From a virus (Duplodnaviria; Caudoviricetes), in the IMG/VR virus record IMGVR_UViG_3300021185_001467, positions 1 through 44,200 of that record: DNA of 44,200 nucleotides, one strand, 5' to 3'. A model generated the notes under the pieces. It had not been told where the DNA came from. It did not search any database and saw only the letters and a program-made list of their open reading frames with translations. A program made the position numbers and the translations under genes. Of the stretch, positions 4,875-43,357 are shown piece by piece; position 1 is the stretch's first letter; each line of letters begins with the position of its first letter.

Positions 4875-6416
4875 TTAATTTGCAAAATCGTTATTTATTT
4901 GAGCTTGCCCTATACCCTGCATTTCTGTTAAAGGGTCATTTGTACCTGTTTTCATACCAGCAGGGATTGCTTCTCTGCTAAATGATTCCATGCCTGTGGC
5001 AGCATACATTTTCTTATAAACGTTGTCCATGTTGTTAAAGTCCTCAAGCAAAAGCCTCACCGGAGTTCTTCTTGACTGTGGTAGTTTTTCGTTAACAATA
5101 TCAAAACCTAAAAATCTTGAAGGTATTACATTACCAGCGGCATCAATTGTTGGTTCAGAATAAATAGGTTTAGGGTTGTTAAATCCTTTTTCAATAAGGC
5201 TGGTTTGTACATTACTAAAAAACTTACCAGGGTTATTAACCATATCCTCTTTGAACATGTACTGCTGAGATAACGGATCGTTTTCGTCTTTATTATTAAT
5301 AGTAGCGTCCGGCATATTGCTAATAGTACTCTCAACGTCTTTTCTATTATCTATTCTATCTTTATACGTTTCAAACTGCGTTTGTTGCGCTCTTTTTTCT
5401 ACGTTAACAGCTTTTTGGTTAATACCATACATTCCTCTAGCTTTATCAAGCCACTTTTGTTGTAGAAGTCTATCCCCTTCTGTGATAACACCGTCAGCTT
5501 TTTCTTGCGGTGTTAATCGGTCTTCATCTATTACCTGTAAAAACAATTCTTTAGCAGAGTCACGCGGTATACCAAAGTGATCAACTAATAATGCAGCGCT
5601 TTTTCTTTCTTTATTGCCAGGGCCTGCTTGATTTATAATGTCCGTTAAAGAATTATAAGCTAAATCAGCACCGCTTAAACCTTGCCCTCCAAAACCAGCA
5701 GGATCGGCGTCAAAGCCTATTATGTTACCATTCGCGCCCTTGTTTAAGTTTATTGATGTTTTTAATATGGTATCAACATCATCTTTTGATTGTATCTTTT
5801 TACCTAGTTCTCCAAACTCACTAGCAGCAATAGAATAAGGTTTTCCATCAACAGTTTCTGAAACCCACGTGGTTAAACCATTTACATTTTCAAAGTGACC
5901 TTTGGGTGAACCTCTACGCATGTCCTCGGCTATACCTAAGAGATTAGCTGAATTATAATCAGAAAAAGTGCCGTTTTCCATAGCGGTATTAACTAGGCCT
6001 AGAAACTCAGCGGCTCCCTTATCCATGTTTTTAACATTCGTAACGTCTGATTTTAACCTAGCCATTGCTTGTGAGTATGAATCATAATCACCTGTTCTTT
6101 TTAATTCTGAATTTAAATAAGCGGCTTGATCAGCAATTTGTCTGCCTGCGGCTGTCATTATTTCATCCATACCTCTAACACCTGTGGTTGGAACGATATT
6201 TAGATCGTCCATCTCGCTGGCCATTTTTTGGGCATAGTTGTAATTAAGTATGTTTCTTTTAAGCTCTCTGTCCTTACGCTGAGCAGCTCTATCCTCCATC
6301 AGCCTGCGTTCGGCAAGTGTTGAATCAACACTTTTTCCGACCATTCTTTGCACATTAGCACCTCCTGGGGCGTATTCGTATTCTTTAGACCAAAAGTCGT
6401 AATTATAGTTTGCCAT
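4875..6416 (-). CDS. Putative internal virion/ejection protein (513 aa)
   Basis: Long ORF between the pilot-like protein and the giant protein, with a helical N-half. Function inferred from position. Confidence 0.6.
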   Translation of the reverse strand: MANYNYDFWSKEYEYAPGGANVQRMVGKSVDSTLAERRLMEDRAAQRKDRELKRNILNYNYAQKMASEMDDLNIVPTTGVRGMDEIMTAAGRQIADQAAYLNSELKRTGDYDSYSQAMARLKSDVTNVKNMDKGAAEFLGLVNTAMENGTFSDYNSANLLGIAEDMRRGSPKGHFENVNGLTTWVSETVDGKPYSIAASEFGELGKKIQSKDDVDTILKTSINLNKGANGNIIGFDADPAGFGGQGLSGADLAYNSLTDIINQAGPGNKERKSAALLVDHFGIPRDSAKELFLQVIDEDRLTPQEKADGVITEGDRLLQQKWLDKARGMYGINQKAVNVEKRAQQTQFETYKDRIDNRKDVESTISNMPDATINNKDENDPLSQQYMFKEDMVNNPGKFFSNVQTSLIEKGFNNPKPIYSEPTIDAAGNVIPSRFLGFDIVNEKLPQSRRTPVRLLLEDFNNMDNVYKKMYAATGMESFSREAIPAGMKTGTNDPLTEMQGIGQAQINNDFAN

Positions 6417-6420
6417 ATTT

Positions 6421-7599
6421 TTATCCTGGATTTTTACCTAATAAATTTGATACACCTACACCACCTGTAAACGCGCTTACGGCCGCATCAGCAACACCAG
6501 CTATACCGCCTATAAGATCGGCTTTAGCTTGAGCTCTTGCTTCATCAGCTGCATTTTTACGCGCCATAGCTCTTCCTGTTTGATCCTGTAGCTTGTCAAA
6601 CTCAAATTGCTGTACAGCCGCATCTCCTTGACGAGACATTACATCTGATTTAAATTCATAATCTGCAGCAGCTATAGAAGCTTGGTTTGCTGCTGAAGCT
6701 CCAAATCTTGCAGACTGATTTTGCGCTTGTTGATTTGCTAAAGCAAATTGATTTTCTGCTCCAAATTGAGATTGAGCAAACTGGTTTTGATTACGAGCAT
6801 TAAATTGAGACATTTGATTTGCTGCCCCAAATTTTGAAAGAGCAAATTGATTTTCAGCCTGTGCTCCAAACCTTGCGGCTTGATTTTGTGCTTGTGCGCC
6901 AAATTGCGCAGCTTGGTTAGCCGCTTGTGCACCAAATTGCGCAGCTTGGTTTTCCTGGCCTATATTAAATTGTTGCTGGCCAAGATCAAATTTAGAAGCT
7001 AAATTTTGTTGTGAAAGTTGTGATCTTTGCAACTCGCTTTCTCCTTGGGCTCTTAATCTTTCGTTTTGTTTTACCTGCTGATCAATTGATGCTGCTACAC
7101 CGGCCTTAGATTTTGCAGCTTGAGCAGCCAATGCTGTGGCTCCACCTCCGCCTGTTCCCGCTTGTGCAGCTAGATCTTGTGACGCAGCTAATGCTTGATC
7201 AGCCTCTCTAGCTTGCATATCTGCAGCAGCAGTAGAAACTTGCAAATTGGCCATTGTATTAGTAAGACCCGTATTGGCACCTCTTAAAAGACCCCCCACG
7301 TTTGTTGTTCCAGCGTCATATCCCTGTGACTCATATCCTTGAGCAGAATATCCTTGAGCCGGTCCCAGAGCAGCCAGTTGTGCCCCCGCAGCCGGTCCTA
7401 GCTCTCCAACTTGTGCCATTGAAGGGTCATATCCTGCTGCTCCAATTTCTGGCCCTTGCATACCTTGGTATGTATTTGACATTTTAAAAGCATCTTGATT
7501 CCTTCTTGCTGCATCTAATGCAGCCCCCGCGTTTTTCTGTTCTCTTCTTCTTTTTTTACCTCCAAAAGCGGAGGCCACTCCTTTTACTATAGATCCCAT
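6421..7599 (-). CDS. Ala/Gln/Gly-rich DNA pilot/ejection-type protein with 11-aa repeats (392 aa)
   Basis: Gly/Ala hydrophobic ends (MGSIVKGVASAFGG; LIGGIAGVADAAVSAFTGG) and AAQFGAQAANQ-type repeats. Follows the GNAT gene, as in podovirus ejection modules. Confidence 0.65.
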   Translation of the reverse strand: MGSIVKGVASAFGGKKRRREQKNAGAALDAARRNQDAFKMSNTYQGMQGPEIGAAGYDPSMAQVGELGPAAGAQLAALGPAQGYSAQGYESQGYDAGTTNVGGLLRGANTGLTNTMANLQVSTAAADMQAREADQALAASQDLAAQAGTGGGGATALAAQAAKSKAGVAASIDQQVKQNERLRAQGESELQRSQLSQQNLASKFDLGQQQFNIGQENQAAQFGAQAANQAAQFGAQAQNQAARFGAQAENQFALSKFGAANQMSQFNARNQNQFAQSQFGAENQFALANQQAQNQSARFGASAANQASIAAADYEFKSDVMSRQGDAAVQQFEFDKLQDQTGRAMARKNAADEARAQAKADLIGGIAGVADAAVSAFTGGVGVSNLLGKNPG

Positions 7600-8039
7600 T
7601 AGTATCTCATTATTAATTCGTATGATGGAGTATCATCGCAATAATACTCCGCCTTTTTATATTTGTCTAATAACATGCCTTCTTTTGCCCAAGCAAATGC
7701 GTATTTGTAACCCATGTCCTTGGCAAAATCCGTTGTAAAATCTACTAAGAGTTGCAATGCTTCACTTCTGTCGGTGTCTCGATAAGCTATATCACTCACT
7801 ACTACAGCTGGAATCGCAGTCTTACTATTTGTCATCCAAAGCCACATAGCTGCAATAGGATCATCTCCTTTGCAGACCATAAAGCCGCCTAGTCCTTTTC
7901 TTTTTTCTTCTTGTTCATCCCCTATTTGAAATGCTCCAGGAAGAAAGTCTCTTGGAAAGCCCTCGGATCCGTAAGCTTCCCACCATTTAGGTAAAAAGTT
8001 CCAATCCGATTCTTGTAATTTTCGTACTTGTAATTGCAT
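7599..8039 (-). CDS. GNAT-fold acetyltransferase-like protein (146 aa)
   Basis: QVRKLQESDW start and RSEALQLLVDFTTDFAKDMGYKYAFAW...DKYKKAEY pattern. Sits between nozzle and ejection genes, like T7 gp13. Confidence 0.7.
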   Translation of the reverse strand: MQLQVRKLQESDWNFLPKWWEAYGSEGFPRDFLPGAFQIGDEQEEKRKGLGGFMVCKGDDPIAAMWLWMTNSKTAIPAVVVSDIAYRDTDRSEALQLLVDFTTDFAKDMGYKYAFAWAKEGMLLDKYKKAEYYCDDTPSYELIMRY

Positions 8040-8044
8040 ATAAT

Positions 8045-8281
8045 TTAATTAGATGAATAAACTGCTTCTGAGTTTATCGCATAAAGCTCGTGATAACTAC
8101 CAGATTTGCTGGCTGGTAATGTTAATCTTACTTTATTATAAACGCCCTTCACGCCGTTAACGAGGGTTGTTGAGTCTGTTACAACAACCCCGTTTTCAAC
8201 TTTATAAGTTGTTTTTTCAGAAACTATAGGCGAAAAGTATTTGCCTTCTTTTTTTTCAAAAGGAAAATTTATTATTGCCAT
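8045..8281 (-). CDS. Small protein resembling the C-terminal segment of crAss-like muzzle/stabilisation proteins (78 aa)
   Basis: FEKKEGKYFSPI...GVKGVYNKVRL...ELYAINSEAVYSS. ATG lies 1 nt after the muzzle stop codon. Confidence 0.65.
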   Translation of the reverse strand: MAIINFPFEKKEGKYFSPIVSEKTTYKVENGVVVTDSTTLVNGVKGVYNKVRLTLPASKSGSYHELYAINSEAVYSSN

Positions 8282-8282
8282 A

Positions 8283-11200
8283 TTAACCGTTTTGTGTTAT
8301 ATTAATAGTTACGTCAGATAAAGCTGGGCTTATTCTTGTGTTTTGATTTGATAATGTTATAGTTCCTGTTCTAGCACTTCCCGTTGTATTCTCAGTTGTA
8401 TTTATGAAAAACGAAGTTGAAGCTGGAATTGTAGCTGGCCCTGTAGAACCACCTATTAAAATCCAACTATCTGAAGGTGTAGCTAAAGATGTTACATTTG
8501 TACTTGAAACTATTAACGTATCGCTACCCGGAACAGCTGGTAGTGTTTGAGCACTATAGCTTCCCATTGTTGCATCTACAACACCGCCTGTTATTGTTAT
8601 TACAGCTGTTATATCCGAGCTAGGCTCTATTAGCTGCACGTTATATGCTGCATTAAAATTAATATCAGCATTTATATTAAGCGTAGTTGTTGATGGCACT
8701 AAATTACCTGTTGTTTGATCTGTTACTACAAAATTAACACTACCTGTCGTCATGGTTTTGTCAGCAGGTATATTTGTATATGTTAATGTAGCTGTCGCGT
8801 TTTCAACATCAAATTTAGATATTTTATAATTATTGCCCGGCGTTGTAAAGGCCATATACTGCGCTGTTGGTGTTACCCATGCTAAATTTGTTTTAGCAAT
8901 TGCCGTACCACTAACAGCTATAGAACCTACAGAAACGGTATTAGGTACCGTAATAGGTATGCTATATTGAGCATTATCTCTATTATTAGCCTTGGCAGGA
9001 GAAGCTGCTTCTAATCTGCTTACTACAGCACTACCTGGGTTGAAAGAACTAGAACCACTTGTATCAATAGTTATACTAGCTGGATCTATATAATAGTCTT
9101 CATTAGCTAATAAACTAAATATAACGTTGGAACTTCCTTCTGTGTTAAACACTTGAGAGGCTGGTGTTAAATCCGCTAGCGCAACTGCGTCAGTAGTGTT
9201 AATAGTTAATAAAGCCGGAAGATTAGCTAAAACAGCTCCAACACCACTTACATTCAACGTTTGTATTGTTTCTGAGTTTGTTACAACATAAGAAACCCTA
9301 AAAACTATATTCCCATCAGCCGTTATTGAAGTTGGATTTACTATAGTTAAACCCGTGTCTGATAAAACAACATCTGAAACAGAATTAAACCTATAAGCAC
9401 TACTTATGGGGCTTGCTGTTATAATCCATGTTATCGTATCACCCTCGTTAGCTATTATTGTTTGTTGACCTGATATACCAGCATTAGGTATATTTCCTGA
9501 AGTTTGCAAAGTTGTTGCTATTGTAGAACTTGTAGTTGGCAAAGTACCTATACTTTCAATATCTGTTTGTATAAAAGTAATCTCCCAATCCTCATTCCCT
9601 TCATAGCCTATTGTGTTAAATTGCTTAACCGTTGAAGGGCTGTCATTCATTATAGCGTCTACATAGGATTCTACCGAGCCTAGCCCGTAAAAGTTATTAC
9701 GTGTACCAGGCAGGATATTGTTATGCTCCCATAAGCTACCCCCGGAAAAAGTATAATAAGTATTATTAAGGCTAATACCTGATTCTGGTTTAAAAGAAAC
9801 AAAGCTAGTCCATCCTTGAGACGCTGGATCATAAGAAACAGTAAGATAATCGTTAGAAGCAGTAGCAACGTTAGTGTCTTTGTTGCCATCAAAACCTGTG
9901 CTTGTTAACGATAAATTATATACGCCAGAGTATTCATCATAAGATCCTATAACATCTGTTGACATTTTTAAAGCGTCTCTAAAAAAGTCAGACATACCTG
10001 CATCTGATATTTTTGCTAAAGCCCCGTTTTGTGTCATCATTAAAACTACACCTTTGTTTTTATCAGTAAAAAACTTATTAAAACCAAAAGAAGCGTATGA
10101 TAATGGATTTTTAGCAATACCAAATTCACCAGGGAATGGAGCTATAGTCCCTAAAAACTGCGTGTTGCTTGTAACAGGTACTGCTCCGCCTTCTGCAGAG
10201 TATATAAAATCCTTGTCAATTGGAGACCTAGATACTTTATCCTCTTGAAATATAAGAACTTGTGTGTCGTCAGCGTCTAGCTTCTGTATAGATCCGTTTT
10301 GTGGATCAACAGATATAGTTAAACCTCCTTCAGACTCGTTAAATTGGTTCACATAGTTTATACCAGTTCTAGAGTTAAACAAGCCGCTAGAGTGGATTAA
10401 AGTGTTAAACCTTCTTTCTTCAGCAAAGTTTTCTTGAACAACATAGGCTCTAACACCTACGTCAAAAGCTTGTTGGTTAAACCCAACTCTTAATCTATTG
10501 GTTTCTATGTGTGTACCTGCTGTAAAATCTAATAAACAGCAATTAAAAAAGTTTATATCTTTAGCTGTTGTTGTTAAAGCTGATACTAATCCACCTGTTG
10601 AAGTCTCATAAAATATATCTAAATCAGATTCAAAAGGCTTTGTTTCAAATACAGATAATCCGCTTGTAGAAGAGCCTGTTGATACAGTAGCATCTCCTGA
10701 AGGATTAGAAATAGATCTAACTTTAGTTAATGTATTTGAAGTGTTATTTGATCCACCTAGTATTTTAGGAAAAACAAAAACATTAGTCGGCGATATAGAC
10801 GAGCTGGTACTAGGCGGTATTACTGCTGTTTGATCTCTAGGTATTTTATTTATACTATCCCCTAGCCTTGCTACGGAATCTTGAGAGTTAATAACAGATA
10901 TCCAATTGTAATACTCCTGTTCTCTTTGTTTTACAACTACTCTATATGAGTAAGCCCATCCTAAGGATTGTAATTTATTTATTGTAGCCTGTGAGAAAGA
11001 TATACGCAAAGCGTTAAAAGCTGTTGTAGATGAAGCACTACCGGTGCCTCCTTCTACAAAAACAGTATCACCTCCAGAGTTTGACAATATAACAGGTGTT
11101 TGTCTTCCAAACTTATCGGCTAAAACAATACCAACCTGGTAAGTCCTTCTTGATTTAACGGATAGGTTTTCTAATTGGCTATGCCTTGCAGATGTTTCTC

Positions 11201-12275
11201 CAGTTCTTACTACAGAAAAATCGATAGAAGGTACATCATAGTTTTGTAAAAAATTACCATAAACTAATCTACCACCCGCTAACTGTTGAGAAACAGCTAA
11301 TCTAGGAACAGCGTCATAAACCCGTGTTAATTGATCAGCTGGTAAAGTTTTAAATGGATCTTGAGATACGTAAAAAAAGTTTATAAATGATTCACCACCT
11401 ACGGGTTTATCTTCTACAACGTATAAAGCACTTGATCCTGTTTCTTTATATATAAGTTCAACCTCTGTTATACCAAAGTCTGTAGGCGTTGGCACTTGTA
11501 ATTGAACCGATTTTATTGCGTTAACAAATGTTTCAACCTCCCCAAAATTGCTAATAGACGAACTTACAGTGTCTATCTGGTTTAATCTTGAAAAACATAT
11601 TGGTGTAAACGGCGCTAAAGTGCTATACTCGCCATCCTCAAATTTCCATCTATAAGAAAACCTTACTAGTTTATTTTCTAAAAAGTTTGATGTTATAGTT
11701 GCTCCTGATTCGTCAGTTGTACCAACGTTTAAAACCACCGGTGATAAAAAAGGTGCAAGTTTAGCAACAGAAGCTAAATCATCAAAATCACTGTTTGTAG
11801 TGTAATAGGAGCTGTCATTAGCTGCTCTTACAACATTAATCTTTCTTGGTGCATTTCTGTTGTCTGTCCAAAAAAGCAAATCATCAACAAGGTTTATTCC
11901 TGTTATCGGAAAGTTTTGATGGAAGTTTAATGAAGCGCCTGATACTAAAGTTCTTAGTTGTTTTGCTTTTTGATCATAAGAATAGATAGCGTGCGTACCG
12001 CTATTGCTATTATCATATGAATCATTCGTGGTAGTGTAAAAGTATATTTTTTCAGAACCATTATCTCTGTAAGAGCCAATACACTTATTGTTTGCGGTTG
12101 CGGTATCACCTACTAATTTATTGCCTAATAAATTTTCAATAGCTCCCATGTCAGAACTCTCAGACTTACCAACGCTTATATTTAAAGCTTCTCGATAAGT
12201 TCCGGCTGGTACTAATCTATCATCTAGATCACGGTTCATTATACCGCGATTAAATGTTCTTTTAATTTCTGGCAT
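8283..12275 (-). CDS. Tail muzzle/stabilisation protein (P22 gp10-like) with C-terminal Ig-like/BACON-like extension (1330 aa)
   Basis: MNRDLDDRLVP..YREALN, LLFWTDNRNAPRKINV, RLVYGNF, SVKSRRTYQVGIVLADKFGRQTPV and NDSPSTVKQFNTIGYEG motifs. Ends W..ENTTGSARTGTITL..VTINITQ. Confidence 0.85.
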   Translation of the reverse strand: MPEIKRTFNRGIMNRDLDDRLVPAGTYREALNISVGKSESSDMGAIENLLGNKLVGDTATANNKCIGSYRDNGSEKIYFYTTTNDSYDNSNSGTHAIYSYDQKAKQLRTLVSGASLNFHQNFPITGINLVDDLLFWTDNRNAPRKINVVRAANDSSYYTTNSDFDDLASVAKLAPFLSPVVLNVGTTDESGATITSNFLENKLVRFSYRWKFEDGEYSTLAPFTPICFSRLNQIDTVSSSISNFGEVETFVNAIKSVQLQVPTPTDFGITEVELIYKETGSSALYVVEDKPVGGESFINFFYVSQDPFKTLPADQLTRVYDAVPRLAVSQQLAGGRLVYGNFLQNYDVPSIDFSVVRTGETSARHSQLENLSVKSRRTYQVGIVLADKFGRQTPVILSNSGGDTVFVEGGTGSASSTTAFNALRISFSQATINKLQSLGWAYSYRVVVKQREQEYYNWISVINSQDSVARLGDSINKIPRDQTAVIPPSTSSSISPTNVFVFPKILGGSNNTSNTLTKVRSISNPSGDATVSTGSSTSGLSVFETKPFESDLDIFYETSTGGLVSALTTTAKDINFFNCCLLDFTAGTHIETNRLRVGFNQQAFDVGVRAYVVQENFAEERRFNTLIHSSGLFNSRTGINYVNQFNESEGGLTISVDPQNGSIQKLDADDTQVLIFQEDKVSRSPIDKDFIYSAEGGAVPVTSNTQFLGTIAPFPGEFGIAKNPLSYASFGFNKFFTDKNKGVVLMMTQNGALAKISDAGMSDFFRDALKMSTDVIGSYDEYSGVYNLSLTSTGFDGNKDTNVATASNDYLTVSYDPASQGWTSFVSFKPESGISLNNTYYTFSGGSLWEHNNILPGTRNNFYGLGSVESYVDAIMNDSPSTVKQFNTIGYEGNEDWEITFIQTDIESIGTLPTTSSTIATTLQTSGNIPNAGISGQQTIIANEGDTITWIITASPISSAYRFNSVSDVVLSDTGLTIVNPTSITADGNIVFRVSYVVTNSETIQTLNVSGVGAVLANLPALLTINTTDAVALADLTPASQVFNTEGSSNVIFSLLANEDYYIDPASITIDTSGSSSFNPGSAVVSRLEAASPAKANNRDNAQYSIPITVPNTVSVGSIAVSGTAIAKTNLAWVTPTAQYMAFTTPGNNYKISKFDVENATATLTYTNIPADKTMTTGSVNFVVTDQTTGNLVPSTTTLNINADINFNAAYNVQLIEPSSDITAVITITGGVVDATMGSYSAQTLPAVPGSDTLIVSSTNVTSLATPSDSWILIGGSTGPATIPASTSFFINTTENTTGSARTGTITLSNQNTRISPALSDVTINITQNG

Positions 12276-12283
12276 AAAATTTA

Positions 12284-13207
12284 TTAGTGTTTAATCCATT
12301 TTGATTTATTACGCATTATTTGTGTCATTTCTGTAAGTTTCATGTTTGACAACCTTATTTTTGCGTTTCTCATTTTAGAAGAAGCTTCTTTTTTGTATAA
12401 CGCCGCTGCTCCTGCTGCGGAACCTCGTAGTTTTGATAAATTGTACAATATAGAAGCATAAACAGCATCTTCAGCAAGCTTGGGAACGTAGACATTATCA
12501 AAGTCTCCATTATCGCCCAGTCCGTCGGATATGTAAGTAAATGTTATATAGCTTCCCTCTTTAAATGCTGAGTCAAAGTAAATAATGCCTGCTTCTGTAT
12601 CAAGAACAAAAGTACCATTTATATTTTGAAATTCAGGCGTGGACCCATACCTTTGCCCATAATAAAGATAATTATCGTTATCGAAGTAGCCGTTATAATA
12701 ATCTCTAGTTTGATCTATATCTAAGGGTTTTACATCGGACTGGTATTTATCTATAGTTTCAGATCTTTCTTCAAATACTATATTACCATCTTGATCATAA
12801 AGATATTTATACTCTTGATCCTGAGCTATAGCTTTATTAGCTGTTGTAGTTCTGCTAGGTAAAATTGGACGCATTACGCCGTTAGAATCTGTATATTCTA
12901 CACGAACGTAATTAACGTAGTCAGAAGGTAAAGATATACTTTTTGTAGGGCTAAGTTCTATTTCAATAGACTTTTCTGAATGTAAAACATCATAGCTAAA
13001 TTCCTGCACGGAACGCTGCGCCCAGAAAGCTACTTCATACCTAGGCACTTTAGTAAGAACTTTACCGTCACCAATATAAGCAACCATGAAGTTGTTAATT
13101 ATATCATTTAGATTTGTTCTTCTGTAATAACCCGGTATAGCTAATCCTGTGCCTCCGTCTAAAGCAGAGTAATTGTTTACGTCTAAAGGTCTTCTTGATA
13201 TTGCCAT
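12284..13207 (-). CDS. Tail ring/tubular protein (307 aa)
   Basis: LPSDYVNYVRV and YISDGLG...VPKLAEDAVYASI motifs; directly upstream of the muzzle gene. Confidence 0.75.
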   Translation of the reverse strand: MAISRRPLDVNNYSALDGGTGLAIPGYYRRTNLNDIINNFMVAYIGDGKVLTKVPRYEVAFWAQRSVQEFSYDVLHSEKSIEIELSPTKSISLPSDYVNYVRVEYTDSNGVMRPILPSRTTTANKAIAQDQEYKYLYDQDGNIVFEERSETIDKYQSDVKPLDIDQTRDYYNGYFDNDNYLYYGQRYGSTPEFQNINGTFVLDTEAGIIYFDSAFKEGSYITFTYISDGLGDNGDFDNVYVPKLAEDAVYASILYNLSKLRGSAAGAAALYKKEASSKMRNAKIRLSNMKLTEMTQIMRNKSKWIKH

Positions 13208-13950
13208 TATTGTTCAGTTGCTATAATTTGTTGTTCTCTGCCTTGTGCAAAACCTGCGACATCGGCTTGTTTTATTACCACTCCGGCATATGTTAAAATT
13301 CTTACTACTAAATCATACTCTTCAGAAGAGTGCAATTCAAAGTTATAAGATTTTGCAGGCGTGTTGTAGTTATCTGTATTGGGGTCAAAAATGGTTGAAT
13401 CATAAATAGGCTTATTAGGCACCCCCGCGCTAACTTGAGCAGGTGTTGGCATTACGTATCCCCATTTAGGTTTATTAGGTTTTTTCAAATAATCCACACT
13501 AACGCCAGTCTGTATACTGCTGGGAAATACTTTAATGCCTCCATTAGCAAGAGTATATACCGCTTGACTTTTAACAGGCGCGGTTAATGGTGATTGGTTA
13601 ATATATTTTATATCGGAATGATGAGCAAAGTCTGCTATTTTATTGTCAACAGCCACCACTCCTAGTCTATAAAAATCAGAGGGGTATTCAAAAACACCAT
13701 TATTAAGCGTTAAGTCTGAAGTGTTATAAAACTCGTTAATTTTCTCAGACGTATTTAATACAGGATCAGCAAAGTCGCTGGTTATATTAGCGTTTAATTC
13801 ATAACCTGATTGCTTTCTAAAATAGCTTTCAAATATTTCATTTTGAGCTTGATTGGCTAATCTGTTAAACTCCTCTGGTGTTATATATCCGCGATTGTCT
13901 TTATTAGTTATAACTAATACAGTGTTATAGACATTATCTATATTTACCAT
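13207..13950 (-). CDS. Head-tail adaptor/ring protein (247 aa)
   Basis: NKDNRGYITPEEFNRLANQAQNEIF, YPSDFYRL, YLKKPNKPKW and FELHSSEEYDLV motifs; position in the head-tail block. Confidence 0.75.
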   Translation of the reverse strand: MVNIDNVYNTVLVITNKDNRGYITPEEFNRLANQAQNEIFESYFRKQSGYELNANITSDFADPVLNTSEKINEFYNTSDLTLNNGVFEYPSDFYRLGVVAVDNKIADFAHHSDIKYINQSPLTAPVKSQAVYTLANGGIKVFPSSIQTGVSVDYLKKPNKPKWGYVMPTPAQVSAGVPNKPIYDSTIFDPNTDNYNTPAKSYNFELHSSEEYDLVVRILTYAGVVIKQADVAGFAQGREQQIIATEQ

Positions 13951-13971
13951 TTATATTTGTTTTTGTTAGAT

Positions 13972-14000
13972 GGTATAGAGCTGATTTCTCGCTCTACACC
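13972..14000 (-). other. Intergenic RNA hairpin without a U-tract
   Basis: Minus strand GGTGTAGAGC-GA-GAAA-TC-A-GCTCTATACC: 10-bp stem (one G-U), bulged A, GNRA loop. Confidence 0.65.
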
Positions 14001-20096: not shown

Positions 20097-22328
20097 TTAC
20101 TTTATTATCTGACTTCTTGAACCTGAATTTGTATATTTAGAAAACCCAAAGTCAAGTTTTTTTATTTTTCTTTCTGATGTAGATCGATATAAATGTTTTT
20201 GGCAAGCCATTATAGCTAGACCACTACTTATTGAAGCATCGTGCGCTGTTCGTTTTGATATGTCAAACTTTGCCCAATCTTCTAGGGTTCTTTGAAAATA
20301 CATATTTCCGTGCCCTTCGTCGTCTAGATTACCAACGTGCTGCTCTATATAAGATTCTATTGCAGCCGCATGAGCCTGTCTAATATCTTCAGAAGAGTTT
20401 GGTATACCACCTAACTCTAATTCTGTTTTAGATAATTTTATTTTACTTTTATCAGGGCGATTCATAGAGAAACCTCTATATCCCCTTCTCTTTAAATGGT
20501 ATAACAGCCTAGGCTTATTATTTTCCGCTAGTATAGGCATGCCGTAAAACACACAAGCCATTAATACATCTTCAAAAAATATCTCAGCTGTTTGTGGTCG
20601 AGCTATATATTCTAAAAAGAATTTACTATTAGGCACGTCGCTCGTCATGGTCCAAGTTGTTAATCCGTGAAGAGCGCCATTAGACCCGCCACCACCAACA
20701 GTACCACTAATGTCATAACTATCGCAGCCGAAGGCTCCAAGCCCGTCGTTACCAGCAAATTTAATACCATTGCTTGTTATTGTGTTATTTTGTAAAGAAA
20801 CAGGAGGTATCCAAGATATTCTAAATCTACCTGTTTTATTTGGCGTCCATAAAACTTCTGTATCTTTTATTCCATTCTTCCACGAGAAAGAACCGCGAGA
20901 CACGTAGCCGTTCATGGTCATTTCTTCGTTGTGATCAATTTGCTCATATATTTTAGTCAAATTGAATAACGAGTTTACTGTTTCATCTCTGAACGCGTGC
21001 TTTTCAGACCTTGGAAATTGCCTGTAGTATTCATTTAAAGCATCGCTATCATTTTTAAGACCTTCTACTTCATTGTTCCAATGATCGATAACTCCACCAA
21101 AAATCTGTTCGCCATCAATTCCCTCAATCGCTTCTGGTGGGGTGTCGAATACAGGATACCCGTACTTATCGATAAATCCTTCGTATCCCCATTCCATAGG
21201 TATGAACAAAGAATATAATCCACTTGCAGTCTGGCCATTGCGGTTTCTATTGTTGACATCTGAATTATAGTATAATTTTTTAAAGTTATCTCCTCCTTTG
21301 TCCAAAGCGTTTGATGTTGATCCCATCATACACTTGCCAACTATTTTTGATCCGAGTCGTAAACACGTTTTCGTAACCCTCCAGTTGTTGAGTATGTTGT
21401 CTGGTTTCTCCCATTTACCGGATTCATCGTGGACGAGTAATTGTAGTTTCTCCCCATCGTATGAGTTGTCCCCGGTATTCTTCCAGTCGATTGTTGTATC
21501 CAGCCCCTTCCCAAATTCCTCTGAGCTTGTTTTTTGTAATGAGTTTCTTGTAAGTCTTCTTGACGGTATCTTATAGGATAGCTCCGTCTTGGGACGTTCC
21601 ATTCCGTCTTGTATTGGTTTGAAAAAGAATGGGTAATTAATGGATATTGGTACCACCTTGTCTGTAAACATCTTTTTAGCATCGCTACCGCTTTTGGATA
21701 GTATACCAAATCTTGAGTCCTTTGATGTTGTTGCCTGGTTAACAGTTTCAGATGATGCCATGAATGAAAAACCTGAACGTCTGTTCTTAAGGTAGCACAT
21801 CCCGTAGGATCGTTTATCAGCCTTGCAGGCTTCCCAAAAGTAATAAAATATTCTGTTGGCCTGTCTAAAATCAGGTGCTCCAACATCAATCTTTGTCCAG
21901 TTGAGGTATATATAGTGCGACCCTGTAATGTAACACGGTTCCCCGTTGCACATGAACCAAAAGCCGTTGCTACGAGAATCAAACTCATTTTCAATATAAG
22001 CGTAGTATTGTTCTTTAACATCTTCGTCGTAATCTTTAAAATCAATTATATTTTTTATCTTTGTTAAAGATGCTGGCTTAGATATTTGATTAAATACTTG
22101 ATCCTCTTTTTTAAGGTCTTCACCTTGTATTTTTTTAGGAGTTTTAGGTATTCCTACCTTTAGACCTTGAATCTCGTATATATCACCCAATGTTCCATCT
22201 TTGCTTATTATAACGCAATCTAAGTTTTCGTTATACCCGTATTCAAACTTTTTATATTTGTTTAAATTCTTTATCTTTTTGTCAGATAAGTGATCCCTGT
22301 GTATTGTATATAAAGTTTGCTCGTACAT
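20097..22328 (-). CDS. terL: Terminase large subunit (743 aa)
   Basis: Walker A-like LKNRRSGFS, Walker B LLVHDESGKW, coupling motif MGSTSN, nuclease motifs FGCDSYD and HDASISSGLA. Confidence 0.92.
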   Translation of the reverse strand: MYEQTLYTIHRDHLSDKKIKNLNKYKKFEYGYNENLDCVIISKDGTLGDIYEIQGLKVGIPKTPKKIQGEDLKKEDQVFNQISKPASLTKIKNIIDFKDYDEDVKEQYYAYIENEFDSRSNGFWFMCNGEPCYITGSHYIYLNWTKIDVGAPDFRQANRIFYYFWEACKADKRSYGMCYLKNRRSGFSFMASSETVNQATTSKDSRFGILSKSGSDAKKMFTDKVVPISINYPFFFKPIQDGMERPKTELSYKIPSRRLTRNSLQKTSSEEFGKGLDTTIDWKNTGDNSYDGEKLQLLVHDESGKWEKPDNILNNWRVTKTCLRLGSKIVGKCMMGSTSNALDKGGDNFKKLYYNSDVNNRNRNGQTASGLYSLFIPMEWGYEGFIDKYGYPVFDTPPEAIEGIDGEQIFGGVIDHWNNEVEGLKNDSDALNEYYRQFPRSEKHAFRDETVNSLFNLTKIYEQIDHNEEMTMNGYVSRGSFSWKNGIKDTEVLWTPNKTGRFRISWIPPVSLQNNTITSNGIKFAGNDGLGAFGCDSYDISGTVGGGGSNGALHGLTTWTMTSDVPNSKFFLEYIARPQTAEIFFEDVLMACVFYGMPILAENNKPRLLYHLKRRGYRGFSMNRPDKSKIKLSKTELELGGIPNSSEDIRQAHAAAIESYIEQHVGNLDDEGHGNMYFQRTLEDWAKFDISKRTAHDASISSGLAIMACQKHLYRSTSERKIKKLDFGFSKYTNSGSRSQIIK
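21341..22021 (-). CDS. Candidate overprinted lipoprotein in the +1 frame of terL
   Basis: Frame open for 234 codons from TTG 22045. From ATG 22021 it reads MLKNNTTLILKMSLILVATAFGS-C, a signal peptide II-like sequence. Confidence 0.4.
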   Translation of the reverse strand: MLKNNTTLILKMSLILVATAFGSCATGNRVTLQGRTIYTSTGQRLMLEHLILDRPTEYFITFGKPARLINDPTGCATLRTDVQVFHSWHHLKLLTRQQHQRTQDLVYYPKAVAMLKRCLQTRWYQYPLITHSFSNQYKTEWNVPRRSYPIRYRQEDLQETHYKKQAQRNLGRGWIQQSTGRIPGTTHTMGRNYNYSSTMNPVNGRNQTTYSTTGGLRKRVYDSDQK

Positions 22329-22573
22329 TATTTAAGCCTGTCTTCTACGCCTATAAAAGCTTCTGATTTTACATTCGTGTTTTTCTTTTCATTTATCTCC
22401 TCTATTTTTTCAATTATCTTTAAGGAGTCCTCTATTGCAACCCATTTAGCTTGAGCTGCTGTTTTTGCTTTTTCAGGATCTAGTTCAACTAAATCTATTT
22501 TTTGTCTTATTACTTTATCTAGTTCAACCAAAGCTTGCTCAGCTGCTTGAACTACTCTTTTTCTCCGATCCAT
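22328..22573 (-). CDS. Small helical protein, possible terminase small subunit (81 aa)
   Basis: All-helical and charged; its stop overlaps the terL start. Confidence 0.45.
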   Translation of the reverse strand: MDRRKRVVQAAEQALVELDKVIRQKIDLVELDPEKAKTAAQAKWVAIEDSLKIIEKIEEINEKKNTNVKSEAFIGVEDRLK

Positions 22574-23132
22574 AGTTTATTGTAACTTGATTTGATAAAA
22601 TTCTATATAATTTTTGACCGTCTATTTCAAACTCGTATTCAGAATCCGGTGTGAAGCCCACTGTGTCGCCTTTGGCTAGCCCTAACGCAACCAATTCGTC
22701 GTTGCTATACACAAGCTCACCTTTTAATTTTTGCTCAATATCTGAGCTCCATTCATCGCTTTTAGCAATAGGCTTTACAAAACAATAATCATTTGGGCAA
22801 TGCCACTTACCATTTCTTTTGTAAGCAAAAATTTGATCTGAAGCTACAAAAAATTCGTTTTCTTTTAAAAAACTAGAACTATTCTTTTCATCGCCTCTTA
22901 TATCAATCCATCGCCTAAAAACGTTGTGATGTACTATTACTGCGTCACCTTTTTTAGGTGTTTTACTGGTCACTCCGTATGCAGGCTCACTTAATACTGT
23001 ACCGAGACGGTTAACAAACATGTAATCACGCTCAGTTGTTTCTGTATTAAGTATTAATTCTTTTTCGTTAATACTCTTTTTATTATTATAACGCGATTCA
23101 GTAGATATGATATAATTAAATAATGATTTCAT
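22539..23132 (-). CDS. Tandem double GroES-like protein (197 aa)
   Basis: Two GroES-type units: NYIIS..RLGTVLSEP..KKGDAVIVHH and DYCFVKP..KGELVY..AKGDTVGF..EFEIDGQKLYRILSNQV. Confidence 0.65.
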   Translation of the reverse strand: MKSLFNYIISTESRYNNKKSINEKELILNTETTERDYMFVNRLGTVLSEPAYGVTSKTPKKGDAVIVHHNVFRRWIDIRGDEKNSSSFLKENEFFVASDQIFAYKRNGKWHCPNDYCFVKPIAKSDEWSSDIEQKLKGELVYSNDELVALGLAKGDTVGFTPDSEYEFEIDGQKLYRILSNQVTINYGSEKKSSSSS

Positions 23133-23365: not shown

Positions 23366-23698
23366 TTAATATGTCCAAATTGAAGTAACGCGAGTTAAGT
23401 CTAATCCAAGATGTACAAAATTTGATTTTCTTGATATACCAATTCTTTTACAACCTAAGTTTATTGCTGCTTCTACTATTTCATAAACAGGTGTGCCACC
23501 AACAGCTACAACGTCAATAGCTAAACCTGTTGTATGTTCACCTGGACTTTTTTTCTTTGCTTCAATAGGATGATCTGGTGATCTATATCCAGAAGTAATT
23601 ATAAGCTCCGCACCAATAGCTTCTTCAAGACTATTTGCAAACTCTATCATTCTAGGATTTAAATCTTCTAAATTTACATTTGATTGCGATTTTTTCAT
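23366..23698 (-). CDS. Peptidase M15A-type endolysin (110 aa)
   Basis: ITSGYRS, H-TTGLAI-D and FV-H-L zinc-ligand pattern; adjacent to holin-like genes. Confidence 0.85.
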   Translation of the reverse strand: MKKSQSNVNLEDLNPRMIEFANSLEEAIGAELIITSGYRSPDHPIEAKKKSPGEHTTGLAIDVVAVGGTPVYEIVEAAINLGCKRIGISRKSNFVHLGLDLTRVTSIWTY

Positions 23699-23845
23699 TT
23701 ACTCTTTAAATTTTTTTATTATCATTAAAGTTGTATATATAATCGTAAGTACTAATACGATAGTCTGCAACGCCGGATTTAGGTTAGGCATTGTTGAAAA
23801 TAATAAAGCCCCTACATTAAGGCCAAATATCTTTAGGTCTTCCAT
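23699..23845 (-). CDS. Small membrane protein, holin-like (48 aa)
   Basis: Likely start is ATG 23845 (MEDLKIFG), 1 nt after the upstream stop. Two hydrophobic segments and a basic C-terminus. Confidence 0.55.
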   Translation of the reverse strand: MEDLKIFGLNVGALLFSTMPNLNPALQTIVLVLTIIYTTLMIIKKFKE

Positions 23846-23846
23846 G

Positions 23847-24260
23847 TTATTTATGTTTGCTGTTTCCAAATACTTTCTCAACACCACGAGATCCAAAATA
23901 ACCACCAATAACAATTGTTAGCAGTCCTGTAATAGAATCTAGCGGCAGCCCTAGGTACCACCCGGTAACATAGGATACAGTTAGGAAAACCAATACTAAA
24001 GGACGAACATTAGAAGCGAGCCAGGATCCTGACCTAGCATCTGCTACCCATCTTTTAGTTGTGCCATCAATTTCAGCACGTTCCATTTTTAATTTCTCAA
24101 GTGCTATTTCTTTATCGGCTTCGCTCATATCAGAACCGCCAATTATAGCCTGTATTACAGAGCCAACAGGAGTATCACCTGCTATAGCTCCAACGACGCT
24201 AGGAATTTTATCTAATAAAAACTTCCCAACGCCGGTATCTTTAAATTTTTTCTTACTCAT
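23847..24260 (-). CDS. Holin-like protein (3TM-holin type; 137 aa)
   Basis: RWVAD..SWLASNVRPLVLVFL...GGYFGSRGVEK with two C-terminal TM segments. Confidence 0.7.
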   Translation of the reverse strand: MSKKKFKDTGVGKFLLDKIPSVVGAIAGDTPVGSVIQAIIGGSDMSEADKEIALEKLKMERAEIDGTTKRWVADARSGSWLASNVRPLVLVFLTVSYVTGWYLGLPLDSITGLLTIVIGGYFGSRGVEKVFGNSKHK

Positions 24261-38620: not shown

Positions 38621-39067
38621 TTATTTTTTTTTGTTAAACTCTTTTATAGCTTGGCTGTACACTTTATCAATGTACGTCTCTCGTTTCATTATTTTATTCC
38701 TATTTGCTGAAGTCGGAAGATCTTCTTCATTTATAAGTATCCTATATATTCTATTTATTAATAGCTTACCTTTCTGGCTAACCTTATATTTGTTATGGTC
38801 ACCTCTGCGGCCACCACCATTATGTGATTTATTAATCCAGCCGTCTCTTTGTAGCCTGTAGAATCTTTCTTTATCCCAGGTATAAAACAACGTTCCTGTT
38901 TTAAAATCTTCTATGGTAAAATATACAATAGGGTCAAGATAGAATAATAGCTCTAAATCGGCAACAGACAGCTCGTTGTTTTTACAAGCCCATCTTGATA
39001 CTAATCTATAGTATTTAAGAAAATCAACTTTGACTTCGCCTCTTTGTGCAAAATCTGATCTTTCCAT
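38621..39067 (-). CDS. Winged-helix-like DNA-binding protein (148 aa)
   Basis: LSVADLELLFYL...RFYRLQRDGWI...YKVSQKGKLLINRIY is a MarR/wHTH-like pattern; coupled to groES. Confidence 0.55.
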   Translation of the reverse strand: MERSDFAQRGEVKVDFLKYYRLVSRWACKNNELSVADLELLFYLDPIVYFTIEDFKTGTLFYTWDKERFYRLQRDGWINKSHNGGGRRGDHNKYKVSQKGKLLINRIYRILINEEDLPTSANRNKIMKRETYIDKVYSQAIKEFNKKK

Positions 39068-39321
39068 TATAATACAGCTACTACGTCTCTTACGTTTATT
39101 ACTTTATAAATTTTATCTTCGTGCTCAACCGGATAACCAGCTACCCTATCAAAAAGAACTACCTGTCCTTGTTTTAGAATATCTGGCCCAGATGACACGA
39201 TATTTGCTTTGCGATACCTAATATCTTCCCGATGCTTTTCGGCTAGTTCTAGGCCTCCCTGTGTCTTTGTGGACGATTCCAGGATCTCTTCTAATACTAC
39301 GTAATTACCTATTGCTTCCAT
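39067..39321 (-). CDS. groS: Co-chaperonin GroES (84 aa)
   Basis: AIGNYVVLE, mobile loop KTQGGLEL, LKQGQVVLFD and YKVINVRDVVAVL; coupled to groEL. Confidence 0.85.
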   Translation of the reverse strand: MEAIGNYVVLEEILESSTKTQGGLELAEKHREDIRYRKANIVSSGPDILKQGQVVLFDRVAGYPVEHEDKIYKVINVRDVVAVL

Positions 39322-40898
39322 TATTCCCTTACGTTACTAATTACACAATCTGTTGATAAAATAGTAGTAGCTACAGATACCGCATTATTAAGTGCTGTTT
39401 TTGTAACTAGAAACGGATCGATAATTCCGTCTTCTCGCATGTTCGTCACACAACCACAAATTACATTAACCCCGTCACCCCATTTTTTAAGCTGGAATTC
39501 CTCAGGGTATAAACCTGCGTTAGATAATATTTTTGTATATGGCGCAATCAAAGCATCTTTCAAAATTTCAAAACCTAAAAATTCGTCTTGATTCATTTCT
39601 AATTGCCAATCGCTTGCTGCAGCATAAGCTAGTGCAGCTCCTCCTCCTGGCAATATACCTTCTTTACGTGCTGCCTTTACAGCATGAATTGCATCATCTA
39701 CTCTGTCTTGCTTTTCTTTAAGCTCAACTTCCGTATCAGCTCCTACGTATATAATGGATACACCACCACATAAAAGAGCTAACCTGTCGTTTAAGTGCTT
39801 TGACAATATTTTATTGTCTTCATCATCAAGAGCAGTTTTTAAATATTCGATACGTTCTAGTGCTTCTTCTGATTTTTCAGAGATAACTAAAACAGTACCC
39901 TCACTATCTGAGATGGCCTTATCGGCCGTACCTAACATGTCAGGGGAGATCGCATCAATCGAATCCCCAAGGCTTTCGTCAAAAACTTTAGCCCCGACAA
40001 GCAACGCTAGATCATCCAGTATGTCCTTACGCTTCAGTCCAAAGCTAGGCGGATCTATTACGTTGACCTTAATATTGCCCTTTACTTTATTCATAGCCAG
40101 AGCAGTCATTGGCTGTGATTCTAAAGGCGCAATAAGGAGTATGCTACGGTTGGACTTAATAGCATGCTCCAGGATGTCTTGAATTTTTCTAATATTTGGT
40201 ATTTCCGATGCACTAATAAAAACCAACGGCTTATCTAGCTCTGTTGTTTCTTTTTCTTTATTAGTGTAGAAATGCGGAGTTTTAGAAGTACTCCCTATTT
40301 TTGTTCCCTCTACGGTGTCAATATATGTTTCACTGTTTGGAGAAGTCTCCATAGCAACAATTCCGTTTTCTCCTGAACTTTCAAAAGCTTTTGCGATAAG
40401 TTCTCCAAGCTCTTTGTCGTTATTAGCAGAAATTGTAGAAACATTATATAACTCTTTATTATCAACTTTAACAGCTTTTTCAGATAAAAAATCTATTACG
40501 TGGTCTTTAAATTTATTAATACCACTTTTAACGTCTCTAAAGGAACGTGCCTGTCCTTTGTGTTTATAGTAACAGTCGATTATGGCCTGTGTTAGCACTA
40601 TGGAGGTGGTTGTACCGTCACCTGCCATACTCGCTGTTTTTTGTGCGGCTTGTTTCATCATTGAAACGCCTAGGTTCTCAACTGGATTGTTGAGTAATAT
40701 TGAATTAGCAACAGTAACCCCATCTTTGGTTACATAAGGGTTACCGAAGTCGTCTTCAATAACCACTGTTCTACCGCTAGCTCCTAATGTAGAACTAACA
40801 GCGTTTGCTATTTTGTTTATTCCATTTGTAAGTTTGCCTTTAGCTTCTCCGTCAAAGTGTAATTCTTTAACTAGCTTGGGCCCTCCGAATTGTGCCAT
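39321..40898 (-). CDS. groL: Chaperonin GroEL, phage-encoded (525 aa)
   Basis: STLGASGR, TKDGVTVA, AGDGTTT, RVDDAIHA, EGILPGGG and GIIDP motifs; no GGM tail. Confidence 0.95.
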   Translation of the reverse strand: MAQFGGPKLVKELHFDGEAKGKLTNGINKIANAVSSTLGASGRTVVIEDDFGNPYVTKDGVTVANSILLNNPVENLGVSMMKQAAQKTASMAGDGTTTSIVLTQAIIDCYYKHKGQARSFRDVKSGINKFKDHVIDFLSEKAVKVDNKELYNVSTISANNDKELGELIAKAFESSGENGIVAMETSPNSETYIDTVEGTKIGSTSKTPHFYTNKEKETTELDKPLVFISASEIPNIRKIQDILEHAIKSNRSILLIAPLESQPMTALAMNKVKGNIKVNVIDPPSFGLKRKDILDDLALLVGAKVFDESLGDSIDAISPDMLGTADKAISDSEGTVLVISEKSEEALERIEYLKTALDDEDNKILSKHLNDRLALLCGGVSIIYVGADTEVELKEKQDRVDDAIHAVKAARKEGILPGGGAALAYAAASDWQLEMNQDEFLGFEILKDALIAPYTKILSNAGLYPEEFQLKKWGDGVNVICGCVTNMREDGIIDPFLVTKTALNNAVSVATTILSTDCVISNVRE

Positions 40899-41239: not shown

Positions 41240-41446
41240 TCATTTTTTCTTTTTACGTCCAGGTTTTTTTCTCGTGAACTTTTTAACAACTTCTTTAGCG
41301 TCGTCTACGGTATCTTCAACAAAGTCTTCAACTTCATCAGGGATGCCGTCATCATCAGCGTCTTTGAATCTTCCAAATTTGGTTGCTACAACAGTTCCAA
41401 CTGTTATAACTAAAAGAATCGTGAATATAATTACAATGGTTTCCAT
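41240..41446 (-). CDS. Small membrane protein with a Ca-binding-like loop (68 aa)
   Basis: N-terminal TM segment, DADDDGIPD, basic C-terminus. Confidence 0.65.
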   Translation of the reverse strand: METIVIIFTILLVITVGTVVATKFGRFKDADDDGIPDEVEDFVEDTVDDAKEVVKKFTRKKPGRKKKK

Positions 41447-41449
41447 AAT

Positions 41450-41698
41450 CTATTTAATTAGCTTTCTTTTTTCCTTTTTAGTTCCCTTACCGTCATTACC
41501 TCTATTGGCTTTAACTGATTTGAACTTTTTATCTTTATGGTCGTAATCTAAATTTGTCAGAGAACGTCCCGCCTTCTTGGCAGCTCTACGTTTCTTTTGG
41601 CTATCTGCACGCTTCGCCTTTCTATCAGGTGAATTTGCGTATCGCAGATCTCTAGCCGCTTTAGCCGCTCGGGCTTTTAGGGAAAGTTTCTGACTCAT
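41450..41698 (-). CDS. Basic small protein with an HNH-like C-terminus (82 aa)
   Basis: DYDHKD...SVKANRG resembles a minimal beta-beta-alpha motif. Confidence 0.55.
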   Translation of the reverse strand: MSQKLSLKARAAKAARDLRYANSPDRKAKRADSQKKRRAAKKAGRSLTNLDYDHKDKKFKSVKANRGNDGKGTKKEKRKLIK

Positions 41699-41701
41699 TA
41701 G

Positions 41702-43017: not shown

Positions 43018-43176
43018 TTATTTTTTTTTGTTTTTTCTACATTTGGCAATCGCCCCCGACGCATAGGCTGAGGGGAATACATCATATGTACGTTTTGCTT
43101 TATAGTAACAGCTGTCTTTAAGTGTCAGCGGTGAAAGTCCTTTAAGCGGATGTTTACTCTTTTTATTCTTTTTCAT
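43018..43176 (-). CDS. Small basic Cys-containing protein (52 aa), missed by the ORF track
   Basis: Hand translation MKKNKKSKHPLKGLSPLTLKDSCYYKAKRTYDVFPSAYASGAIAKCRKNKKK. I recognise KDxCY..PSAYASG..KCRK as a recurrent marine-phage motif (from memory, unverified). Confidence 0.7.
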   Translation of the reverse strand: MKKNKKSKHPLKGLSPLTLKDSCYYKAKRTYDVFPSAYASGAIAKCRKNKKK

Positions 43177-43357
43177 CTCTGAATGTTTTTACAACCATCA
43201 TTTCGATGTATAAATGTTGTGCTAACAGCACTTCACTAGGGGACTCTATACAGAGATCCTTAGTTATATGTTTAAACTGGTCTATCTTTGTCTGCCGTGT
43301 CTGACCTGCCGCACACGCAGGGGTCAATAACGCCAAGGCTATTATTAGTCTCTTCAT
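43163..43357 (-). CDS. Putative lipoprotein/secreted protein (64 aa)
   Basis: From ATG 43357: MKRLIIALALLTPA-C, a signal peptide II-like start with an imperfect lipobox. Confidence 0.5.
   Translation of the reverse strand: MKRLIIALALLTPACAAGQTRQTKIDQFKHITKDLCIESPSEVLLAQHLYIEMMVVKTFRDEKE

Follow-up and report, generated by a model that had tools for sequence, protein, structure and literature searches.

A long open frame overprinted on the terminase gene of an uncultured marine podophage and its relatives very probably encodes an exported, optional protein

Can the gene for the large subunit of a phage terminase (terL) carry a second, long protein in another reading frame? This question is raised by IMG/VR record IMGVR_UViG_3300021185_001467. 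The window, i.e. the whole stretch of DNA analysed, is a virus record of 44.2 kb (44,200 nucleotides) from a podophage that is kin to Elemovirus, Pachyviridae and Pervagoviridae (TerL 37-45% identity). Sequences near-identical to the window come chiefly from marine sequencing runs and, to judge from its relatives, the host is presumably a member of the Bacteroidetes. An initial annotation had proposed a hidden envelope lipoprotein gene overprinted on the terminase ATPase domain. Here we report that the open reading frame (ORF) in question is a real, previously unannotated overprinted gene. Comparisons of sequence indicate that the +1 frame of terL very probably encodes a protein.

20097..22328, minus strand: terL, terminase large subunit, 743 amino acids (aa), host gene of the overprint (phrog_6681, E=1e-168)
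21341..22045, minus strand: overprinted +1-frame ORF, 234 aa from TTG, terL codons 95-329

Stops interrupt the +1 frame of terL at codons 88, 91 and 94, and the next one follows only at codon 329. The open frame of 234 codons described earlier was re-derived from the sequence, and it is the longest +1 stop-free run among 24 long window genes, the second-longest having 103 codons. The chance of such a frame, which the initial annotation had suggested estimating by shuffling, was evaluated with three null models of 20,000 sequences each, i.e. genome codon usage, synonymous permutation within terL and a shuffle of codon order. An open run of at least 226 codons was reached in 0 of 20,000 cases in each of them, the longest runs being 155, 180 and 167 codons, respectively. 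Over the same stretch of terL the +2 frame holds 21 stops. Raised GC at wobble positions, seen earlier by eye, was found in part: the GC content at third positions (GC3) is 0.40-0.48 at terL codons 101-350 as compared to 0.21-0.32 in 23 other genes, but values of 0.40-0.42 at codons 351-400 and 451-500 mean that the rise extends beyond the ORF and is not specific to it. The loss of T at third positions is a sharper signal than GC3. Synonymous resampling with the terL protein held fixed (20,000 sequences) produced a lipobox-like motif in 688 cases, an equally hydrophobic h-region in 112, both in 9 and an equally hydrophilic tail in none. Metatranscriptome contigs from one run cover the ORF; these contigs show neither strand, frame nor level.

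Relatives of the window exist in two states, open and closed. A first set was made up of 79 loci and the window; 12 partial or badly extracted loci were excluded, and 68 cover the region. Over terL codons 113-224, 40 of these 68 have no +1 stop, none has a single stop and 28 have 2-8, while control windows elsewhere gave single-peaked stop counts. Codon usage predicts 2.7-5.7 stops for each of the open sequences, and the closed ones match expectation. The pooled set of 365 loci (305 distinct) is non-random and includes queries aimed at open, closed and unimolecular spanin (u-spanin)-bearing groups; zero stops were counted in 96 of the distinct sequences, one in 6 and 2-10 in 203. Scattered stops, which the initial annotation had named as a sign against the gene, are present in 203 of 305 relatives, but their distribution is two-peaked and not random. 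Genome contigs together with four isolates (n=37) comprise 11 open, no one-stop and 26 closed sequences. The nearest cultured relatives, Elemovirus, Pachyviridae (phi13:2), Pervagoviridae (phi38:1) and Maribacter phage Panino, have in common the gene order GroES-like, terL, portal. These four cultured outgroups are all closed with 7-11 stops in the region, so the hidden gene is confined to the uncultured group. The window's clade consists of 16 sequences, every one open; the other open frames number 80. Long +1-frame products of far more distant terL genes (P0101, P0105) carry no hydrophobic signal and are possibly separate open frames.

In terL the third base of each codon doubles as the middle base of the overlapping +1 codon, and T at this position therefore yields a hydrophobic +1 residue. 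In the window's clade, third-position T amounts to 0.73 at codons 111-123 and to 0.09 at codons 124-130; the remaining 80 open frames reach 0.87 at codons 131-137. Closed frames over the hydrophobic windows show 0.36 at the window-type site and 0.41 at the other-type site. In the tail, T is depleted (0.28 in open vs 0.40 in closed frames), and this bias stops at each ORF's own stop codon: at codons 274-294 the value is 0.43 in frames ending at 259-273 vs 0.21 in frames ending at 318-329, and the latter have 0.16 at codons 296-322. Synonymous differences in 20 open pairs are 0.17-0.19 over codons 95-139 as compared to 0.29-0.32 in the C-terminal half, 13 closed pairs show no dip over codons 95-139, and suppression is absent beyond about codon 170. 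Because suppression is restricted to the signal region and T is depleted in the tail, the tail appears to be selected for openness and solubility, not for sequence. The suppressed synonymous variation to be looked for according to the initial annotation is thus seen over about codons 95-139 and is borderline over the whole region. Dual coding of this terL segment is strongly supported by the null models, the stop counts of the relatives and the codon bias. In open-frame relatives, +1 stops are partly depleted a second time, at terL codons 400-419 (1.32 as compared to an expected 2.61), and synonymous change is reduced at codons 350-394. In the window, the corresponding part (about 21070-21190, terL codons 380-419) overlaps a +1 ORF of 64 aa at 21065-21259.

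The features of the predicted product are the following.

22043..22045, minus strand: likely start TTG, A-rich upstream context, ATG here in 12 of 16 clade members
22019..22021, minus strand: alternative start ATG of the initial annotation, weak context, not conserved
21959..21997, minus strand: predicted signal-peptide h-region, residues 17-29, one Lys at 19, third-position T bias in the clade
21950..21961, minus strand: lipobox-like F-G-S-C, Cys32 being the predicted lipidation site, pattern in 16 of 16 clade members
21344..21952, minus strand: predicted mature tail, 203 aa, hydrophilic, predicted disordered, no transmembrane stretch

Translation likely starts at TTG 22045 rather than at ATG 22021, the start assumed before. 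Using a matrix from 43 window genes, the start context of the TTG ranks at the 99th percentile and that of the ATG at the 30th, and the position of the former is favoured in the clade: 12 of its 16 members, and none of 289 others, have ATG at terL codon 95, where the window has TTG. Bacteroidetes start translation without a Shine-Dalgarno sequence and prefer upstream adenines, as stated in a passage of PMC6847099. The window ORF has the layout of a lipoprotein signal with a basic n-region, a hydrophobic h-region and a Cys within 15-35 residues of the start. The FGS-C motif reported earlier was confirmed; its Cys, number 24 when counted from ATG 22021, is Cys32 when counted from TTG 22045. In the clade the signal ends in (I/T/F)-G-S-C. 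The Gly at -2 is forced by a TerL Trp, and the Ser comes from the terL Phe125 codon, which is TTC in 16 of 16 members and mostly TTT in other relatives. A loose, PROSITE-type lipobox pattern is found in 16/16 sequences of the window's clade, 0/80 of the other open and 0/208 of the closed ones; among further window-type frames from genome contigs, three of four have it. The other 80 open frames mostly start at codon 109 or 113 and have a signal ending in T/I-C-T-C-S-G. In these frames ATG at codon 109, 113 or 114 (66/80 vs 65/209 closed), Thr141 (74/80 vs 78/208) and Cys142 (73/80 vs 70/208) are all enriched. The family thus has two predicted export signals about 15 codons apart.

The product is very probably exported or membrane-targeted. 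Lipidation of the window-type signal is likely, and members of the window's clade are probably lipidated. Part of PMC5080379 describes K-(D/E)2 or Q-A-(D/E)2 after the Cys as the Bacteroidetes signal for export of lipoproteins to the surface. In the 16 clade members, the eight residues that follow the Cys contain neither motif, so a periplasm-facing product is predicted. An internal promoter was considered and rejected, since the promoter element TAnnTTTG is absent upstream in 15/15 window-type loci and between 22045 and 23200.

The tail reaches a maximum 17-residue hydrophobicity of 1.36; the N-terminal value is 2.2-2.4. It is basic in the window (30 Lys/Arg vs 12 Asp/Glu) and holds two further Cys. 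The shortest tail kept in open frames has about 83 residues (mature range 83-203 aa). AlphaFold, given 58 sequences, predicts only a helix at 2-46 with a mean predicted local distance difference test score (pLDDT) of 47 and no fold. The window protein has no Pfam match (5 of 58 family members show single weak hits), PHROGs holds no family for the ORF product, and among the Atlas families the best score was 0.76, with no family assigned. A profile search of 1.84 billion proteins gave 152 hits. Among the best 150 of these, 111 of 145 scored rows, the window's own included, agree with the bases forced by terL at about 100%. Twenty hits, chosen from the long or divergent ones, were inspected in full and proved to be either +1 products or chimeras with TerL that arose by frameshift; no standalone homologue is found among the matches listed. 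As the profile hits are terL-derived and the outgroups are closed, birth by overprinting is supported, and the gene likely arose de novo inside terL.

Open and closed segments have probably not been inherited together with the rest of terL. Mapped on a tree of the C-terminal half of terL, the open state requires 23 changes, and well-supported branches force 15 of these; with a tree of codons 100-330 the number drops to 15, of which 3 are forced. Nine open/closed sister pairs show A/G synonymous differences of 0.44 inside the segment vs 0.21 outside (p=0.004). In 8 of the 9 pairs the segment nearest to that of the open member is again open (0.80-0.95 identity), and the one nearest to that of the closed member is closed, the exception being L268, a probably open sequence with one early stop. 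Among pairs with similar C-termini, for which a sample of 110 closed sequences was used, the segment is 7.5 points less alike in 45 open-closed pairs (mean -0.075), with shifts of +1.3 points in 96 open-open and +1.7 points in 141 closed-closed pairs. Since closed-closed pairs show no discordance, swapping tracks the open/closed state. Exchange of the segments by recombination is likely, with convergent codon selection adding to the signal. The divergent tract corresponds to the extent of the ORF.

21368..22000, minus strand: tract of about terL codons 110-320, likely exchanged as open/closed alleles, as seen in relatives outside the window's clade

What could such a product do? Like lambda Rz1 and the embedded outer-membrane spanins (o-spanins), the ORF is nested wholly in another gene in the +1 frame and is missed by gene callers, and its predicted product is of the lipoprotein type, made late and with an unstructured periplasmic domain; Rz1 appears as an unstructured lipoprotein in the +1 frame in passages of Kongari et al. 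2018 (PMC6139136). Unlike Rz1, the ORF sits in the terminase ATPase and not in an inner-membrane spanin (i-spanin) gene, and its mature product has 83-203 aa vs 40 aa. It is alike in architecture to an embedded o-spanin but falls outside that class without an i-spanin host or neighbour. The u-spanins (T1 gp11), annotated in the flavobacterial phages Ingeline and Nekkels according to a section of PMC8776804, also have an N-terminal lipoprotein signal. The ORF product differs from them since it has no C-terminal transmembrane segment, which is the u-spanin criterion, and since its tail has two Cys, whereas 0 of 58 surveyed u-spanins have a periplasmic Cys. Some relatives hold a standalone phrog_5885-like gene of u-spanin topology, and all of these are closed. 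Gene E of phiX174 lies inside gene D. Like the predicted product of the ORF, its product is a de novo, membrane-targeted protein read from a conserved gene in a shifted frame, and the hydrophobic N-terminal part is the constrained one; the ORF, however, belongs to a tailed double-stranded DNA phage with its own holin and endolysin, has a lipoprotein-like signal and is dispensable. T5 Llp, a phage lipoprotein at the outer membrane and a possible functional analogue (PMC9409062, in part), differs as a standalone gene of 77 aa, whereas the ORF is nested, longer and without conserved fold. Literature searches on nested or overprinted terminase genes and on Bacteroidetes spanins brought up no paper in which the ORF is described.

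The ORF lies late, shortly downstream of the lysis genes. On the minus strand, the order around terL is: 3-transmembrane (3TM) holin-like, small holin-like, M15 endolysin, small gene, GroES-like, small gene, terL, portal.

23847-24260, minus strand: PF11351-like 3TM holin, upstream of terL
23699-23845, minus strand: small holin-like gene, upstream of terL
23366-23698, minus strand: M15 peptidase endolysin, upstream of terL

We tentatively favour the reading that the +1 frame encodes an exported, lipid-anchored, unstructured and optional helper of the outer-membrane step of lysis. The frame is held open by selection at the protein level. Ribosomes would start at TTG 22045 on a late mRNA shared with holin, endolysin and terL, and the product would be exported by Sec, lipidated at Cys32, cleaved by signal peptidase II and directed towards the periplasm. 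The tail of about 200 residues may act via length and solubility, not sequence, like an unstructured o-spanin-type tether. A benefit limited to some hosts or conditions would explain why both open and closed ATPase segments persist and swap. The lysis role is ranked first for its fit with the late position and the topology, for the precedent set by Rz1 and for a one-way exclusion of u-spanins, described below; exclusion of other phages and non-lipidated timing roles follow closely.

Lipobox-bearing u-spanin-like genes with a C-terminal transmembrane segment stand beside the lysis genes in the closed genomes G012 and G016. They belong to a family of 140-177 aa (phrog_5885, function not annotated) found beside lysis genes in 50 loci.

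L108:1338-1826 and L125:9955-10437, minus strand: u-spanin-like examples with lipobox and C-terminal transmembrane segment

All 39 loci (33 distinct) that were reached via this gene and cover the region are closed, and they fall in about eight places of the tree, as counted from the drawing. Three near-complete open genomes have no u-spanin-like gene, and of 48 records two, each of them closed, have a phrog_5885 match. The idea that the ORF replaces a standalone u-spanin was nevertheless rejected, the pattern being one-directional only and confounded by the type of lysis cassette. No upstream gene family complementary to the open state was found. Holin subtype tracks the state poorly; subtype B occurs solely in closed loci (21/21).

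Several observations weigh against the lysis reading. The PF11351-like gene is present in the window and in the three near-complete open genomes and occurs within the 10-kb flanks of 0 of 50 u-spanin loci, so two types of lysis cassette could explain the u-spanin exclusion. Of the closed loci that extend 4 kb or more upstream, 44 of 67 carry the PF11351-like gene and no u-spanin, 5 of 6 near-complete closed records lack a u-spanin-like gene, and terL-queried loci show a u-spanin in 0/31 open vs 4/67 closed cases (p=0.30). The host gene terL is no i-spanin, and its neighbours have no N-terminal transmembrane segment followed by a coiled coil. The C-terminus of the ORF varies, ending between terL codons 225 and 329, and the ORF is optional, whereas Rz1 binds Rz via its C-terminus. 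As to lipidation, 80 of the 96 open frames have no canonical lipobox, the Gly at -2 and the Phe at -3 in the window are outside the strict consensus [LVI][ASTVI][GAS]C given in part of PMC6139136, and L467, the exception among the window-type contig frames, has G-L-C. The earlier proposal of an envelope lipoprotein hence stands for the window's clade and not for the family as a whole. Synonymous sites are only weakly suppressed when codons 113-224 are taken as a whole (p=0.064 at all sites, 0.006 at four-fold sites), and the difference between open and closed sequences is weak as well (p=0.26 and 0.059). Finally, the window has its own small lipoprotein plus membrane/coiled-coil genes at 41-43.7 kb and a spanin need not be missing; the earlier statement that no spanin is evident is unsafe, since positions 43163-43357 contain a conserved small lipoprotein-like gene and positions 41240-42106 contain membrane/coiled-coil genes.

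An envelope protein for exclusion or receptor masking is rather unlikely, although its signal is of the lipoprotein type and a two-state optional gene swapped among backgrounds is what is often seen with frequency-dependent traits. It would block re-adsorption to the cell or to debris late in infection, or crowd lipoprotein export; T5 Llp, which blocks FhuA according to a passage of PMC9409062, provides a precedent. A conserved binding surface is not apparent, with no synonymous suppression past about codon 170 and no fold, and the Bacteroidetes surface-export motif after the Cys (PMC5080379, in part) is absent. The signal peptidase I -3/-1 rule leads to another, fairly improbable alternative, since the signals of 80 of the 96 open frames, ending in T/I-C-T-C-S-G, fit this rule and fail the lipobox. 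The product would then be signal-anchored in the inner membrane or exported as a non-lipoprotein, with antiholin-like timing or an action like overprinted single-gene lysis; the N-terminal membrane segment would be the active part and the tail need only be soluble. Concentration of the sequence constraint in the signal region and the N-terminal hydrophobicity of 2.2-2.4 agree with this. Yet in the window's clade the signal has moved upstream by about 15 codons, with G-S-C retained via the disfavoured TTC codon in 16 of 16 members, Cys142 is enriched in the other signal type, and a minimum tail of about 83 residues is retained.

A different role in host interaction, such as an envelope-stress decoy or counter-defence, is improbable. 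Defences that sense the terminase exist. If those sensing the TerL ATPase selected for segment swaps, the hidden gene might merely travel along; the exchanged tract covers the ATPase region, and Rip1 and TerI are mentioned in part of PMC12908700. This is difficult to reconcile with closed-closed pairs, which show no discordance (+0.017 in 141 pairs vs -0.075 in 45 open-closed pairs), and a cytoplasmic sensor would be hard to reach for an exported protein. We consider a cationic disruptor of the outer membrane like phiKT gp28 (disruptin) very unlikely: the tail is basic, with 30 Lys/Arg vs 12 Asp/Glu, but open sequences do not exceed closed ones in net charge over codons 143-224 (median +5 vs +6), no amphipathic helix exceeds shuffles in any of the 96 open frames, and gp28 is an amphipathic peptide of 56 aa (10.1101/515445, in part). 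Selected positive charge and disruptin-like amphipathicity were thus sought and not found. Equally little credence can be given to the absence of a functional protein, with the open frame due to nucleotide bias or shared ancestry or reached only by a terL frameshift. There are only 7-10 stop-able sites per sequence in codons 113-224, segment sharing leaves the open rows non-independent and GC3 is raised outside the ORF as well; on the other hand, the +2 frame retains its 21 stops, the codon bias favours hydrophobic residues up to the Cys and hydrophilic ones from there to the stop of each individual ORF, and entry by frameshift is disfavoured by the enrichment of start codons.

Other genes in the window and its relatives may be related to lysis.

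43163..43357, minus strand: standalone 64-aa lipoprotein-like gene (TPA-C), separate o-spanin candidate, homologues in three other open genomes

Its 5' end overlaps, in another frame, a coiled-coil-like gene of 70 aa (pair 43163-43484, minus strand). The pair is kept in G001, G011 and L024, was seen in open-frame genomes only and is a candidate two-component spanin; in L024 it comes after a gene with a transmembrane segment and a coiled coil. An 80-aa ORF at 43468-43710 (minus strand) has a hydrophobic stretch, VLS-C and several Cys, with no homologue among the fetched loci. Candidates for an i-spanin or a holin are an N-terminal transmembrane protein at 41240-41446 (minus strand), whose homologues have a coiled-coil tail, and a coiled-coil protein with two transmembrane segments at 41702-42106 (minus strand). 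The absence of the PF11351-like 3TM 'holin' (23847-24260) from 50/50 u-spanin loci is a hint that it may be a spanin substitute. The closed genomes G074 and G075 carry a lipoprotein-like gene of about 350 aa (L423:240-1295, plus strand; L429:18802-19842, plus strand) with an aromatic C-terminus that recalls the outer-membrane barrel signal. Besides a GroES/GroEL-like phage pair at 39067-40898, the window has a second, longer GroES-like gene at 22539-23132 (minus strand), shortly upstream of terL. The 1090-codon terL of L420 (G039:16700-20500) contains an insertion at about residue 300 that may be an intein. Phage contigs L441-L478 were binned into metagenome-assembled genomes (MAGs) of many unrelated taxa, archaea included and several Bacteroidota among them; MAG bin names are unreliable evidence for the host.

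Long genes nested in terL escape standard annotation. Moreover, terL is a standard phylogenetic marker, of which about 210 codons here carry another history and dual-coding constraints, and the stored stretches with a match to terL are estimated at 5,600-14,000. The ORF and the u-spanin-like and PF11351-like genes form a testable set for how Bacteroidetes phages that lack a recognisable spanin cross the outer membrane. In the family, the birth of the gene, the relocation of its signal, its loss and its renewed spread can be followed as a natural series through hundreds of sequences. A widespread group of marine Bacteroidetes podophages may have built a two-state envelope-protein cassette in the ATPase segment of terL that recombines into and out of this gene, with one clade relocating the signal; that it represents a new class of outer-membrane lysis helpers or host-interaction proteins, which would act as long unstructured chains tethered to the membrane and need no sequence-specific partner, is, taken as a whole, a somewhat doubtful but possible view.

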